Shown: positions 7,697-48,783 of the stretch, one piece after another
How positions within the stretch are numbered: the stretch's first letter is position 1
Layout of the letters: each line of letters begins with the position of its first letter
From: Rhodothermales bacterium
GTDB lineage: Bacteria; Bacteroidota; Rhodothermia; Rhodothermales; Bin80
Reading direction: 5' to 3'
NCBI GenBank assembly: GCA_958296045.1
Contig: CATQHT010000001.1
Coordinates: 885,102-949,101, forward strand
DNA length: 64,000 nt
The notes under the pieces: model-generated
Database searches by the model: none
The model's input: the letters and a program-made list of their open reading frames with translations, nothing else
What the model was told of the DNA's origin: nothing
Position numbers and translations under genes: made by a program

Positions 7697-8401
7697 ATCG
7701 CGGTAGCCCCAGGGTTTCCCCTGGGGCCCCGCACAGATCCGTGCGTGCGCGTTAACGCACACGGCTCTTCCCGCAGGTCGCGCTCCCGCGCATGACGTTA
7801 GGAAGTGGGGATACCCACCTCCAGCCGTAAGCGGTACACCTGCGCCCCGACTGTGGCACTGAGTCCACAGCTCTTGGACAGATTCACGTAATCCGGCCCA
7901 GAGTCCGGCATGAATCCAGCTTTCCGCTTTCCCCTTGGGTGCGACCCTTGGCTCCACCGGCTCCGCCCCGTGGTCATCAACGCGTTGTTCGCTGGCTTCA
8001 TAGCTACTATGGTCGCATCTGACTTCTCTCCACCGTACATCCTCCGATCGGCATTTAGCCTACGCTTTGGCGACCCTCCCCGAAGGGATGGGTAGTGGAG
8101 AGACCTCCCAGGTCCCGATGCAGTACGTACGTGCGTGCCTGGGTTCTTGGACACCGCGGGACCCTCCTCCGCCTCACCATTAACGGCAAAGAAGGTGTTG
8201 CCTTCGACCACGAAGAAACCCTCGGCGTCCCGGACGATGACATTTTCGGTGCTCATTAGCCCTGCCCACCCGCACCTCTACCGACGCTTCGCCTGCACCC
8301 TCGCGGGTACCAACGCACGGCTCGAGGACATGCGTGGATGGTTAGTCCTTCACATCGGGAGACTTTCACTCCCTGTACTGGCACCAGTTAGCCTGGCGCA
8401 C
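7697..8401 (-). ncRNA. ORF-less group II intron, copy 1 (705 nt), inside the aminopeptidase gene in sense orientation
   Basis: The minus-strand RNA starts GUGCGCC (complement of 8395-8401). A domain V-like hairpin lies at 7737-7767 (AGC triad, 2-nt CG bulge, tetraloop). A domain VI hairpin has a bulged A (complement of 7704) 7 nt from the 3' end ...CUACCGCGAU. There is no RT-like ORF. Excising it joins the flanks in frame. Confidence 0.85.
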
Positions 8402-43563: not shown

Positions 43564-43649
43564 GCAAATATGCATCCCGACCGGGGTGGTTGATTAGGCA
43601 GTAGCAGGTCACATTTGCGGTTAGATATCTTAGGCTGGTGAAATATTAA

Positions 43650-45830
43650 CTTAGGGATCATCCATAAATAACTTGCCCATCTGGACAGGTTGTCTCAGAT
43701 AAGCGGGATGTGGTCCAGTCCTTCGCTGGCGCATTACAGAGCATTCCGGGTCCTGTTAGCCTAGTGTTATGGAACACTGTTGATCAAGCCAAGACTGACT
43801 GAGTACTTTTTCGGCCCGCTCATCAGCTGTTTTCCGCGCTCAGTGGGTAGCTGGATCCGTTTGCCCTTAATCCTTGTTCATCATGGATGCCCGCTCCACG
43901 AGCCAGATGCAGTTCGCTGCATCCATGAGCTATTGTCTGCATTATGACTATATTACGATATGTCCTAATACGATACATGTCATAAGGAGGCCATGAGACC
44001 CGTTACCTATTCCGCCGACAAGCTGGCGGAGGCCCTGCGACGCATGACCGTTGCTACCTTACCCGAACTGGCTGCTGCGCTCGGCAATTGCTCCGCCATC
44101 ACGGTCCACCGCAAACTTAAGCAGCTCGGCTACCTCTCTAGCTACTCGCACCGTGGCAAGTACTACGCGCTCCAAGCGGGTGCGAACTTTGATGCGCACG
44201 GTTTGTGGTTTCACAACGATATTCGATTCTCCACTTACGGTACGCTTCGCAATACGGCCAAGATGCTGGTTGAGGCATCCCCACTGGGCTACCGTTCTAC
44301 CGAACTGGATGATGTGCTGCAAGTCCGCACCATTGATACGTTAGCGGCCCTGGTCCGTGACGGCGATCTTGCCCGTGTCCGCTTTCAGGAGCGGAGTGTG
44401 TATTGTTCTGCGGATATTACTCGTCAGCGGCGCCAAGTTGCTGCTCGCCGGATTCAAGCAGCCGGAATTGAGGCCATGCCCAATCCCACCCAAGCCAACA
44501 GCACACACTCAGCTGCGATCGCCTTGTTTTACAGTGTGCTGAATGAGAAGCAGCGGCGCCTGTTTGGGGGTCTTACCTCTCTGTTATGCGGCTATGGTGG
44601 GGACCGACGGGCCGCGAGTCTGTTCGGTCTGCACCGAAAGACCGTCCGAAAGGGTCGCCTTGAACTGGCCAGCGGCAAAGTGGAGGCGCATCGCATTCGC
44701 AAACCGGGTGGGGGGCGTACCGCCTTGAAAAAAAAGCCCTTGGATGATCGCGGAGCTGATCCGACTGGTCCAACCGGAGACCGCTGGTGATCCCATGGGT
44801 GGTCTGTTATGGACACGGCGTTCGCTGTCCAAGCTCGCCGCTGCTCTTGCGTGCTCAGGTATCAAGGTCAGCCCGACCACGGTAGGTAAATGGCTCCGAA
44901 TGCTCGGATACTCCATGCGCGTGAATCGCAAGAGTCTCAGTCGTACCGCACCGTCCGGGCGCGACAAGCAATTCAGGCACATCGCTGCTCTGCGTCAGCA
45001 GTGCTATGACGATGGCATTCCCGTTATCAGTGTGGACACCAAAAAGAAAGAGTTGATCGGGCTGTTTGCTAACTCCGGGGCTGTCTGGTGCCGCGCTCCA
45101 CACCAGGTCAATGATCACGACTTCCGGTCTCAGGCCAAGGGCTTGGCGGTACCTTACGGCATCTACGATGTGCAGGCGAATAGCGGTACCGTCTTTGTCG
45201 GTGACTCCCGGGATACTCCGGCCTTCGCCGTGGATTGCATTGCCCACTGGTTCAATACCGTGGGCCGTAGTCGGTATCCCGATGCCGACCGGCTCGTTAT
45301 CTTGGCTGACTGTGGCGGAGCGAACGGCTACCGTTCACACGCTTGGAAGTACTTCCTGCAAACAGGTGTGTGCGATATCCATCAACTGAGAGTTTCGGTT
45401 GCGCATTATCCCAGCGGTGCAAGCAAGTGGAACCCCATCGAGCACCGCCTCTTTAGTGCTATAAGCCGGAACTGGGCGGGCCGACCACTGGATAGCTGGG
45501 AAACACTGCTCAAGTACATCCGCACGACAACTACCAAGTCTGGGTTGCGCGTCAACTCTGTCAGAGTAACGAAGCAATATCAAACCGGCATCAAAATCAG
45601 CAAGCAACAGATGGTAAAGGTGAACATTAACCGTAGCGAGACGCTACCTCAGTGGAACTACGACATCTACCCCAGCGAAACGCTGGCCTCTGCTCGGATG
45701 CCAACAGATGCCTGACTACCCAAACATCATCTGCCAGATCGCGATTTACCTCCCCTAGTCTGCCAAAGTGGACTCCTGGAGAGGTTGACTTCATTCAGGA
45801 TGGGAAAGTTATTTATGGACGAACCCTTAG
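43650..45830 (+). mobile_element. ISAzo13-family insertion sequence
   Basis: Imperfect terminal inverted repeats of about 36 bp. The left one is cttagggatcatccataaataacttgcccatc at 43650. The right one, reverse-complemented, is ctaagggttcgtccataaataactttcccatc and ends at 45830. They enclose the transposase frames. No clear target duplication seen. Confidence 0.7.
43993..45715 (+). pseudogene. ISAzo13-family DDE transposase in two frames, switching at an A8 run
   Basis: ORF 43993..44790 ends ..IRKPGGGRTALKKK. ORF 44744..45715 continues the family sequence ..IAELIRLVQPETAGDPMGGLLWT...ISVDTKKKELIG...ADCGGANG...KWNPIEHRLFS. The switch is at aaaaaaaa 44728-44735. Confidence 0.8.
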
Positions 45831-45897
45831 CCTGACCGGAACCATGGGCTCCGTAACTGTGCAGATGCTATGCACGCCAATAACCGCTCCCGCCTGA

Positions 45898-46089
45898 ATG
45901 TCGGAAATAGTCGTTGTTTACGTTTCACGTAGATCCCTTGACGCTGCTTTCGGTCTGGCCCTGCGCGAAGGGGTGCCGTACACGGACGTCTTGCGCCGAG
46001 CCGTTGTCGATGAGGCCATTACGTACTCGAAGCGGATACGGGCTGCCCAGACGGCATGCCTGAAAGCCGGCCCACGAGAGCGCTTGTAG
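45898..46089 (+). CDS. possible small ribbon-helix-helix-like protein
   Basis: The 63-aa ORF has a beta-strand/two-helix pattern (VVVYVSRRSLDAAFGLALREGVPYTDVLRRAVVDEAI). It overlaps the proposed tnpB exon 1 in another frame. Support is weak. Confidence 0.25.
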   Translation: MSEIVVVYVSRRSLDAAFGLALREGVPYTDVLRRAVVDEAITYSKRIRAAQTACLKAGPRERL

Positions 46090-48088
46090 CCTTGCTCCTG
46101 AGCCAGACATACCGCTGCTATACAAAGAAGGCGGGCTATGCCCGTCTGCGGCGGAAGTTCGTAAACGGTAAGTGGGTGCGCCAGGCTAACTGGTGCCAGT
46201 TCAGGGAGTGAAAGTCTCCCGATGTGAAGGACTAACCATCCACGCATCTCCTCGAGCCGTGCGTTGGTACCCGCGAGGGTGCCAGCCGAGCGTCGGTCGA
46301 GGTGCGGGTAGGCAGGGCTAATGAGCACCGAAAATGTTATCGTCCGGGATGCCGAGGCTTTCTGCTTGGTCGAAGGCAACACCTTCTTTGCCGTTAATGG
46401 TGAGGTGGAGGAGGGTCCCGCGGTGTCCAAGAACCCAGGCACGCACATACGTACTGCATCGGGACCTGGGAGGTCTCTCCATTACCCATCCCTTTGGGGA
46501 GGGTCGCCAAAGCGTAGGCTAAATGCTGATCGGAGGATGTACGGTGGCGTGAAGTCAGATGTGACCATAGTAGCTACGAAGCCAGCGAACAACGCGTGGA
46601 TGACCACGGGGCGGAGCCGGTGGAGCTAAGGGTCGCACCCAAGGGAAAAGCGGAAAGCCGGATTCATGCCGGACTCTGGGCCGGTTTTCGTGAATCTGTC
46701 CAATGGCTGTGGACTCTGAGCCACAGTCGGGGCGCAGGTGTACCGCTTACGGCTGGGGGTGGGTATCCCCACTTCCTAACGTCATGCGCGACAGCGCGAC
46801 CTGCGGGAGGAGCCGTGTGCGTCAACGCGCACGCACGGATGTGTGCGGGGCCCCAGCGGAAACCCTGGGGCTACCGCGATGTCCGCAATTGGGCGGTCGA
46901 ACAATGCCGCAACGCACACAAGGTAGCAGAGAAGCATCCGAGCTTTTTCACGTTGACGAAGCTCTGGACGGCCGCCCGCAACGCCGATGAGCGCAATCTC
47001 GAGTTCGGCGTGACTGAGCAGCGTTCTCTGATCAGGGGCGTGACGGAGGGTTACAAGCGCTTTTTCAATAAGCACAATGCGCGCCCGCCGCGTTTCAGCG
47101 GCGACTTGGTGAAGAGCTTCAGGCTGCTACGAAAGCCCGAACGCGTCAGGCGCCAAGACTATCGCGTTCGCATCAAGGGCGTCGGGTACGTCCGTTTCAC
47201 CGATTGGCGCGGGTTGATCAAGCGCTACGGCTGCAAGTTCGTGCGCATCGTGCGGTCGTCGCTGGGTACCGAATACTCGATACAAGTCGTGTACGAGCGC
47301 CCCGAGGCGCCAGAGAACAGCTGCGCAGACACGCCGATGGCCGTGGACCTTGGCTGCAAGGCCATCGCGACGCTGGCGGATGGGAAGAGCTACGCGCCCA
47401 TCAAAAAGAGTGAGCCCCGCAGGGACGCTGTGCGGCGTCGGGCTGCTAAGACGAAGAAAGGCACGCGTTTGCGCCGCAAGCGGTTCGGTGCTTGGCGCAA
47501 GGAGGCCGAGCGAGTAGTAAGACGCAACCGCGGGTACCGCCACGAGGTGGCGGCCGACGTCGTTAAGCGATCCGCGAATCTGTTTCTGGAAGACCTGAAA
47601 GTAGAACGCATGACACGCGCCGGTGGCAGCCGCAAGACGGGGCTGAACCGATCGATGCGCGCGCAAGGGCTGTACGAATTGGTGCAGCTGTTGAAGTACA
47701 AATCCGCTTTGCTTGGCGGTAAGTGGAGCTGGTTCCGCCGAACGACACAACGCAGAGATGCAGCGCTTGCCCTCACAAGCCAGAGGAAAGGCTACGCCTG
47801 GCTGACAGGAAGCATCGTTGTGCCACGTGCGGAAAGACCCAGTGCCGCGACGTTAACGCGGCGTTGAACGTGTTGTATCGGGGCCTTTGCCCTGATGGAT
47901 GGGCGGCGAGCCTATCGTACGCGCAACACATGTCTGCTCACCCGGACGCTGAGCGGCATCCGCTGTTGGATGCTGTGGCAGGTCTGGGGAGTGTACAGAA
48001 TCGTGCTCGTGAGCTGCATCCGCAGGGGTGTTGCGCACCCACGAGTTCATGCGAAATTGACCACCGACCAACCAGGCAGATATGTTAA
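46056..48088 (+). pseudogene. tnpB: TnpB-like (IS200/IS605 OrfB) RNA-guided nuclease gene, interrupted by a group II intron and carrying a 1-nt frameshift
   Basis: Proposed exon 1 (46056-46175) reads MPESRPTRALVALLLSQTYRCYTKKAGYARLRRKFVNGKW. Exon 2 from 46881 has ..RFFNKHNARPPRF.., RuvC-I VDLGCKAIATLADG and RuvC-II FLEDLKVERM. The frame breaks at about 47720-47728. ORF 47723..48088 continues ELVPPNDTTQRCSACPH..HRCATCG...CRDVNAALNV (zinc finger and RuvC-III). Confidence 0.75.
46176..46880 (+). ncRNA. ORF-less group II intron, copy 2 (705 nt), inside the tnpB-like gene in sense orientation
   Basis: It is colinear with copy 1 over the full length, with scattered substitutions. It starts GTGCGCC at 46176. 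Domain V lies at 46810-46840, the domain VI bulged A at 46873, and it ends ..CTACCGCGAT at 46880. Confidence 0.85.
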
Positions 48089-48783
48089 GTTTTCGCCAGC
48101 CCTTAGCGTGCGTTGACGTGAACAAGCCCCAGATAAGTTGCTGGACCGGCCCAAGCGCCGCCGCCGCCCTCACGCGAGGTCGGGAAAGTAATGGCGGTAC
48201 CTGGGGTAGCTGTTTGGCCAGGTGGCGGAGTCTTGTTACGACTGTTCCGAGCGGGGCCAGAATCTTCAGTGTCCAGCCGTATCGTACCCCTCGCTGACTG
48301 TGATGTGTAAGGGTCAGAAGGTGAGGTCGGTGCTTCCCATGGAGCTTCGCGTAGCATGCACGAGCAGGGCTCGCACACCTGCTGGCACTTCGTTAAGAAG
48401 CTTGGCGACTTGCTCGGGAACAGCGTGGGCGATGGTAGGTCTGGGCTGCGTGCTATGTCATACTTGGCGCGTACGAGACGGTAAGTGGGAAATGCTTTAG
48501 GATGCATTCCATTCGGCAACGCCACCGAGCAGTGGTGGCTCGCAAGTACCGGGCTGCAGCTCAAGCACCGCGCAGGAAGACACGTTTCTGGAAAAAGATC
48601 ATGTTCCCGGTCGTGGTGGCAGAAGTCGTGCTCATTACGTGCAGACTGTGATCGATGATGCGCGTAGGCTCGCGCAGCTGCAGCCTGAGCTGGGCGATGC
48701 CACAGACTAGAAAACCTTCGACTATGCTGAGTCCTGCATGCTGCTGATGAGCAGTGCTGAACCCAGCTACAGCACAGAATCGT

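Follow-up and report, generated by a model that had tools for sequence, protein, structure and literature searches.

The 64,000-nt stretch of DNA analysed here (the window; contig CATQHT010000001.1 of assembly GCA_958296045.1) is part of a 4.78-Mb bacterial assembly of four contigs that is 96.7% complete. At 43633-48102 the window holds one of ~25 copies in this genome of an element that carries tnpB, flanked by TTA on either side within a CTTAG target. In the window copy, tnpB is interrupted by a group II intron without an open reading frame (ORF), an insertion sequence (IS) is nested in the left end of the element, and one nucleotide is missing from the coding region (coordinates are collected in Table 1). 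The tnpB frame is open over 46056-46175, the same frame resumes at 46881, and after 47722 TnpB runs on in the -1 frame up to a TAA stop at 48086-48088. The window copy was aligned with 15 full-length sister copies, giving 16 aligned copies.

The intron begins with GTGCG at 46176 and its 3' end reads ...CTACCGCGAT, ending at 46880 (the last letters being ...GGGGCTACCGCGAT), with the terminal AT at 46879-46880. These GUGYG/AY boundaries are kept in all full intron copies of the genome. In Rfam, the model of group II domains I to IV, RF02005, matched 46211-46435 with 157.8 bits against a gathering score of 49, and the model of domains V and VI, RF00029, gave a full-length match at 46808-46880 (30.6 bits, E 0.0012) that ends exactly at the 3' splice site. 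Neither the ORF list nor a domain search found an ORF with reverse transcriptase (RT) features within the 705 nt, and the intron is an ORF-less derivative. Exon 1 closes with a complete codon at 46175, and from 46881 exon 2 carries on in the same frame. All 15 sister copies lack the intron and join exon 1 to exon 2 without a gap (...GGTAAGTGG|GTCCGC..., or with more of the 5' context ...AACGGTAAGTGG|GTCCGC...), so the borders of the intron are exact to the base and its removal restores one frame. In the protein, its site falls between W28 and V29, and the invariant Asn31 follows after two codons. The initial annotation, made from the window alone, had placed an in-frame intron in the N-terminal coding region of tnpB and had suggested looking for intron or empty site in the other tnpB copies of the genome; this comparison was run, and the 15 empty sites together with the Rfam matches confirm the in-frame intron. 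In short, the interrupted tnpB is a gene with an in-frame group II intron, the observation being confirmed and its interpretation supported with the corrections given below.

The way in which the intron reached this site can be read from the pairing between its exon-binding site 1 (EBS1) and the intron-binding site 1 (IBS1) of the 5' exon. Over 25 distinct intron/exon combinations, on average 4.92 of the six positions pair, compared with 3.14 in the mismatched control, and none of 10000 shuffles reached this mean. In other subfamilies, EBS1 CUUCGU goes with the 5' exons GCGAAG, ACGGAG or AUGGAG, UCUAUC goes with GGUAGA, and UUCUUG goes with CAAGAA. This co-variation of EBS1 with the 5' exon is the EBS1/IBS1 signature of retrohoming, and it suggests that the 705-nt ORF-less intron retrohomed, in the sense orientation, into the conserved site between W28 and V29. 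The 5' exons of the introns also share a purine-rich motif near positions -16 to -10, and their 3' exons start with G in all cases but one. The tnpB homing site is occupied in the window copy and at C1:316694 and C3:1398238, and by truncated introns at C3:2254769, C1:629926 and C3:2243205 (at least five copies besides the window), while it is empty in ~18 copies.

The intron belongs to a large family. Seventeen copies in the genome match over the whole 705 nt (92.8-98% identity), accompanied by many fragments and twintrons, and more than 50 intron 5' ends were counted. The genome also has 31 matches to maturase domains, and a related intron (78%) encodes an intact RT/maturase of 502 residues without an endonuclease domain (L161:536-2041); this ORF-containing intron is often nested at position 387/388 of the ORF-less one. 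The proteins needed by the window intron would accordingly be supplied in trans by related ORF-containing introns elsewhere in the genome. Three further arrangements of the family were observed. At locus L056 (G000:C3:1393600-1398700, minus strand), the same homing site of one tnpB copy is occupied by a direct tandem of two ORF-less introns, and an ORF-containing intron splits the upstream member at 387/388, so that three group II introns with three RF02005 hits lie in a single tnpB. At C3:1488481-1489185, one tnpB copy has an intron elsewhere, after ...GTGACGGAG (...GGCGTGACGGAG), the equivalent of window position 47050; its subfamily has EBS1 CUUCGU, which fits this site at 6/6 positions. 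A second 705-nt copy lies within the window itself at 7697-8401 on the minus strand (EBS1 CUUCGU against AUGGAG) and splits an ORF resembling M1 aminopeptidases in frame (...AQME|VTVHV...).

If the window intron splices, the exact TnpB reading frame would be regained in the mRNA. Several results weigh against an active intron that entered by retrohoming. With 30.6 bits, the RF00029 match falls short of the gathering score of 40; the sister copy at 7697-7769 (minus strand) only just attains it, with 40.0. The window intron also has private changes that the sister intron at 7697-8401 lacks, namely C>G at the domain V base and G>C in the stem of domain VI, and from these changes together with the lower score it follows that this copy may splice poorly or not at all. 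In the comparison of introns with their 5' exons, no position paired consistently in the manner of a second site pair (EBS2/IBS2), and no convincing EBS2 was found. Finally, the RNA contigs that cover parts of the intron and tnpB contain no copy-specific spliced joint. The sole 46175>46881 joint comes from a run of unrecorded type that also covers unique flanks, and such a joint is expected from the intron-less genomic copies; the RNA runs in which no spliced joint appears are uninformative on splicing either way. An extreme form of this doubt is that the intron is a dead ribozyme and the gene is interrupted for good, whatever the frameshift. The C>G falls on the basal pair of domain V, the G>C leaves the stem of domain VI with a mismatch, RF00029 gives 30.6 here compared with 40.0 for the sister copy, and the host tnpB copy is itself under no selection. 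On the other side, the AGC triad and the bulged branch-point A are intact, as are the two splice-site dinucleotides and the pairing of EBS1 with IBS1, and the closest intron copy (98% identical) has most of the same changes. We regard a dead ribozyme as the less probable alternative; the intron may be a weakened one.

The host gene is a real TnpB gene, as had been proposed from its motifs: both Pfam domains are found (Table 1), and neither the catalytic residues nor the cysteines of the zinc finger have been lost. The intact sister copy L034:1135-2427:- encodes a protein of 430 residues from a TTG start, with matches to OrfB_IS605 (E 5.3e-08) and Cas12f1-like_TNB (E 2.9e-17) in Pfam, and this protein is only 38-42% identical to its closest foreign relatives. 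When the window copy is read with an X at the frame break, the full 430 residues are obtained with no other stop, and the RuvC triad D184, E265 and D352 and the four zinc-finger cysteines (CxxC...CxxC) are retained. Exon 2 of the window copy is 93-96% identical to the sisters, and the ratio of nonsynonymous to synonymous substitution rates (dN/dS) among nine intact tnpB copies is ~0.5.

The N-terminus required a correction. The initial annotation had opened exon 1 at the ATG at 46056 and counted about 40 residues upstream of the intron. The frame is indeed open from there; the ATG itself reads ACG in all other aligned copies, and the family start is therefore the TTG at 46092, with 28 residues in exon 1, and the ATG at 46056 is the product of a private C>T change. 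The public sequencing runs consist of contigs in which the ~25 tnpB copies are collapsed to a consensus, where a variant of the window copy can be neither confirmed nor excluded; in the collapsed contigs of two of these runs, position 46057 is C. A failure of the exon 1 peptide to align to TnpB N-termini had been named as one thing that would refute its assignment, and the peptide does align: its last 28 residues match the N-termini of homologues, and the sisters have one continuous ORF across the junction. The N-terminus of the sister TnpB aligns to foreign homologues from the first residues on, Asn31 being invariant among them. The claim that exon 1 encodes the TnpB N-terminus thus stands.

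Downstream of the intron, the frame is broken by a lesion that is private to the window among the 16 aligned copies. The window reads GGCGGTAA-GTGGAG where all 15 sisters read GGCGGCAAGGTGGAG, and from 47718 the deleted form is GGTAAGTGG (47718-47726) and the undeleted form is GGCAAGGTGG; a C>T change lies three bases upstream of the lost G. The ancestral protein at the break is ...LLGGK-VELVPPNDTTQRC (GGK-VELVPPN). That one base is missing had been seen correctly in the initial annotation; the 15 sisters show that the lost base is a G of AAGG and not, as suggested there, a third G of TGGG, and the protein junction is GGK|VELV in the sisters instead of GGKW followed by ELV. The C>T and the deletion, which would be independent of the intron and the nested IS, shift the frame before the zinc finger and RuvC-III, and no TnpB is therefore expected from this copy even after splicing.

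We consider the 1-nt deletion probably a real, biological mutation. Contamination by reads of other copies would restore the consensus and not invent a unique variant seen in none of the 15 sisters, the ORFs of the window are unbroken up to 7.1 kb, which implies that the assembly is not riddled with indels, and the same copy, with ~20 further private substitutions and a left end split by an IS, is decaying in any case. In addition, four members of the 16-copy alignment, C3:1052962, C3:1562722, C3:2224285 and the window copy, have 1-nt indels in the coding region. What speaks for an assembly or polishing error, which would make both the deletion and the neighbouring C>T artefacts and leave the gene intact after splicing, is that in three runs the collapsed contigs have the C of the consensus and the additional G at 47720-47723, that the deletion lies within a run of two G, and that repeats are harder to polish. 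Given that the copies are collapsed in the public contigs, the deletion may be such an error, a point that counts against our interpretation, and we judge it unlikely on the evidence above. Programmed -1 ribosomal frameshifting as a means of making TnpB is negligible and was rejected: a -1 shift would restore the protein, and nothing else favours it, while all intact sisters encode the protein in a single frame and no slippery heptamer is found at GGT-AAG-TGG-AGC.

A coincidence of sequence at the lesion raised one more alternative. Within 2.3 kb, three occurrences of the 10-mer CGGTAAGTGG lie on one strand: at the end of the intron's 5' exon (46166-46175), at the frameshift (47717-47726), where it is formed by the two private changes, and 373 nt outside the element (48479-48488). 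The change of CGGCAAGGTGG to CGGTAAGTGG, which makes the site identical to the 5'-exon end 1.55 kb upstream, could therefore be a templated event instead of two chance mutations, arising by short-patch conversion from the homing site or as the footprint of an ectopic or aborted retrohoming, and the same event would have killed the nuclease gene. Both adjacent private changes move the site towards the 10-mer at 46166-46175, and the unmutated AGGUGG can pair with EBS1 at 6/6 positions if three G-U pairs are allowed (pairing by eye). Genome-wide, the 10-mer has 37 copies, ~21 of them at the tnpB homing site and 4 in another repeat, which leaves only ~12 singletons in 4.78 Mb (~9 expected by chance), the third copy at 48479 being outside the element. 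We nevertheless consider a templated lesion highly improbable, since 47726 holds neither an intron nor part of one, the changes are 4-8 bases away from the place where an insertion would have occurred, the base that follows is A where G begins every intron 3' exon but one, and C>T is the commonest private change of the window copy; the coincidence was also spotted after the fact.

The frameshift is one of several signs that the window copy is old and decaying. The initial annotation had offered a freshly inactivated gene as one possibility, which is unlikely in view of the nested ISAzo13-type IS, the degenerate left inverted repeat and the ~20 private substitutions. The left inverted repeat is present on the far side of the nested IS, and a loss of this repeat from the window copy is ruled out, as it was found with two changes (Table 1). 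The nested IS sits in the CTTAG within the left end of the element; its ends, GGGATCATCC...GGACGA(A/G)CCC, are fixed by two other full copies in the genome, and its transposase at 44744-45715 matches Pfam DDE_Tnp_ISAZ013 with 3.6e-110. This CTTAG (positions 19-23 of the left end; 45826-45830 in the window) is a repeated landing site for other IS elements: a DDE_Tnp_1 IS with a stop-to-stop open frame of ~784 codons sits in the left-end CTTAG of the tnpB element at C3:876076, and a solo end remnant ('Type B') proved to be the left end of a tnpB element into whose CTTAG another IS had inserted. For annotation, tnpB in the window should be called one pseudogene, frameshifted, interrupted by an intron and with its left end split by an IS, and not two or three ORFs.

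Table 1. Features of the interrupted tnpB element (positions in the window).
Feature	Coordinates	Strand	Evidence or remark
Left 3-bp target-site duplication (TTA) of the tnpB element, CTTAG target	43630..43632	+	Same TTA at 48103-48105
Left terminal inverted repeat, degenerate (one G lost, C>T)	43633..43650	+	GGCTGGTGAAATATTAAC vs family consensus GGGCTGGCGAAATATTAAC
ISAzo13-type IS nested in the left-end CTTAG	43654..45826	+	Own TTA duplication at 43651-43653 and 45827-45829; ~2.2 kb
5' non-coding part of the tnpB element	45830..46091	+	Aligns with all sister copies
Private ATG	46056..46058	+	ACG in all 15 aligned sisters; not the family start codon
tnpB exon 1, TTG start + 27 codons (MLLSQTYRCYTKKAGYARLRRKFVNGKW)	46092..46175	+	ORF of sister L034:1135-2427:-, N-terminal alignment
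IBS1 (AAGTGG), last six bases of the 5' exon	46170..46175	+	Pairs 6/6 (two G-U) with EBS1
ORF-less group II intron, 705 nt	46176..46880	+	Motifs, Rfam, empty sites; sense to tnpB
EBS1 (CUGCUU), domain I hairpin loop	46362..46367	+	Covaries with the 5' exon across intron subfamilies
Intron domains V + VI	46808..46880	+	AGC triad hairpin; bulged A in CUACCGC; 3' AU; RF00029
tnpB exon 2 to the frame break (WED/REC, RuvC-I, RuvC-II)	46881..47722	+	Pfam OrfB_IS605 3.5e-08
Private lesion: C>T at 47720, AAGG short of one G, frame -1	47720..47723	+	Alignment with sisters
tnpB 3' part, shifted frame (zinc finger, RuvC-III RDVNAA, C-terminal tail)	47723..48088	+	Pfam Cas12f1-like_TNB 1.1e-11
Right terminal inverted repeat, contains the tnpB stop codon	48084..48102	+	Sister alignment
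Right 3-bp target-site duplication (TTA)	48103..48105	+	Matches the left TTA

The element that carries tnpB has the ends of a cut-and-paste transposon. Complete tnpB elements have inverted ends of ~19 bp, GGGCTGGCGAAA[T/A]ATTAAC, and in 14 of the 15 complete sister elements 3-bp duplications (TTA, TAA, TCA/TGA or ATA) match inside CTNAG. Inverted ends with 3-bp duplications are a DDE-type signature and not that of IS200/IS605, and no match to PF01797, the Y1 transposase, was found in this 96.7% complete genome; the IS200/IS605 family (IS1341 group) is thus ruled out as the carrier. The partner family was traced only through an end remnant at C3:438216-438656 (L054:217-657), where the tnpB end sequence (27 of 28 bases) lies 55-60 nt past the stop of a decayed ISAzo13-type transposase gene whose product is 55% identical to the ISAzo13-type transposase of the window. 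In a genome of the same family (G015; loci L156 and L160), there are eight copies of a 1.92-kb IS whose ends begin GGGCTGGCGAAAA and which has 3-bp TAA/TTA duplications; its transposase is 74-77% identical to the C3:438216 fragment. The ISAzo13-type IS of the window likewise duplicates TNA in CTNAG. In another relative (G007; loci L063, L071 and L072), a TnpB with 37% identity is carried by a multi-copy element whose 14-bp inverted ends (GGGAATTATATACC) are perfect and whose target duplication is 8 bp long. Because of the tnpB end beside the C3:438216 transposase, the ends of the G015 IS and the inverted-end TnpB of G007, the tnpB ends can be tied to ISAzo13, and the tnpB elements are best read as non-autonomous ISAzo13-family elements with TnpB as cargo, whose cognate transposase would have decayed in this genome. 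It may be a general feature of this TnpB clade to be carried between inverted ends, the DDE partner differing from case to case.

From these ends, ISAzo13-family DDE cut-and-paste transposases probably move, or moved, the tnpB element in trans, and an IS200/IS605 Y1 enzyme would have no part in it. The transposase survey tells in part against this proposal: the genome has no intact transposase with exactly these ends and only two fragments of the cognate type, and the three intact copies of the 55%-identical paralogue have different ends. A genome scan for inverted pairs of the end sequence (≤5 mismatches) returned tnpB elements only, and a general search for DDE families gave 135 PF01609 matches from many IS families and none for PF13359, with no partner among them. 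One of the closest foreign TnpBs, P0003, is on a phage-like 98-kb contig without a DDE gene.

A contig of RNA run X12, with adapters at both ends, comes from another tnpB copy and runs from ~5 nt before 47723 (~47718) to 16 nt past the inverted repeat. Its flank, TTAGCCACTCCCACAC, is an empty CTTAG site in this genome (G000:C2:413516, minus strand), which shows an insertion polymorphism between strains; an element at a CTTAG that is empty here implies that the tnpB family has moved recently. The contig may also represent a guide-RNA-like species with a 16-nt 3' extension. No known guide-RNA family was found at the 3' end of tnpB in Rfam (E up to 1, 46600-48300).

Together, these data very probably describe a decaying copy of a tnpB transposon with a retrohomed intron, a nested IS and a private frameshift, mobilised by a DDE transposase in trans. 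The region 43633-48102 would be one such copy of a non-autonomous transposon of ~1.6 kb that encodes only TnpB, an RNA-guided RuvC nuclease.

Similar arrangements are known. Thermosynechococcus elongatus has 28 related introns, 17 of which are ORF-less and are spliced and mobilised by proteins that their relatives encode; changes in EBS have led to diverged target specificity, there are twintrons, and family F4 of TeI3 occupies a conserved site in ISEL1, an element of the IS200 family (Mohr, Ghanem & Lambowitz 2010, PMC2882425). The same study names insertion into other mobile elements as a mechanism of intron proliferation (PMC2882425). Like TeI3, the introns described here are ORF-less, present in many copies, apparently dependent on relatives' proteins, found in twintrons and located preferentially at a site conserved within copies of a different mobile element. 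The two cases differ in the host, which here is a sponge-associated, probably Rhodothermales-like bacterium and not a thermophilic cyanobacterium, and in the carrier, which here is TnpB-only with ISAzo13-type inverted ends. The host was placed by what a housekeeping gene matches best and by the sequencing runs in which the sequence occurs. The nesting order of the twintrons is also reversed, with the ORF-containing intron inside the ORF-less one (387/388), and the introns of the present genome, unlike those of T. elongatus, are known from sequence alone. Group II introns inserted in IS605 transposons have been described in Anabaena and Nostoc, including PCC 7107 (Kapitonov, Makarova & Koonin 2016, PMC4810608). 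Those introns are likewise nested in a TnpB-family transposon; they encode RT-HNH and sit in IS605, whereas the present one is ORF-less, lies in the tnpB frame at a codon boundary and has a carrier that is not of IS605 type. The initial annotation had called the locus a curious layering of mobile elements. The nesting is real, and with such direct precedents (PMC2882425, PMC4810608) it is not a curiosity.

DDE-transposase-associated TnpB transposons with inverted terminal repeats, and solo TnpBs with the same ends, have also been reported (Altae-Tran et al. 2023, PMC10691335). The elements here resemble these solo TnpBs in being TnpB-only, in their symmetrical inverted ends, in their apparent mobilisation in trans and in having the 3' end of tnpB at the transposon end. 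The main text of that study (PMC10691335) names only IS630 (branch DDE-6), whereas the ends found here match the ISAzo13 family. We found no ISAzo13-TnpB link of this kind in the searchable literature. A further comparison is with IStrons, in which a group I intron is fused to IS200/IS605/IS607 with TnpB (Zedaveinyte et al. 2023, PMC10690162). An IStron also unites a self-splicing intron and TnpB in one mobile unit, its intron being the transposon's own 5' part, which removes the whole element from host transcripts. The intron in the window is instead a separate parasite. It is a group II intron, internal to the tnpB ORF and missing from most copies, which rules out an IStron.

The case is thus a well-controlled but ordinary nesting of mobile elements, a known phenomenon in another lineage, to which the present analysis adds the covariation of EBS1, the link to ISAzo13 and the way in which an IS is nested in this copy. 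With its empty-site controls, the locus is a clean example from nature of a group II intron finding safe harbour at the conserved site of a multi-copy transposon, and it carries the picture of intron proliferation drawn from Thermosynechococcus over to a sponge-associated lineage in a different phylum. A side result is perhaps of more lasting use, namely that a TnpB clade is carried by ISAzo13-type inverted-repeat elements with a CTNAG target. It raises the question of what the target-adjacent motif and the guide are for a TnpB whose own ends rebuild the target motif.

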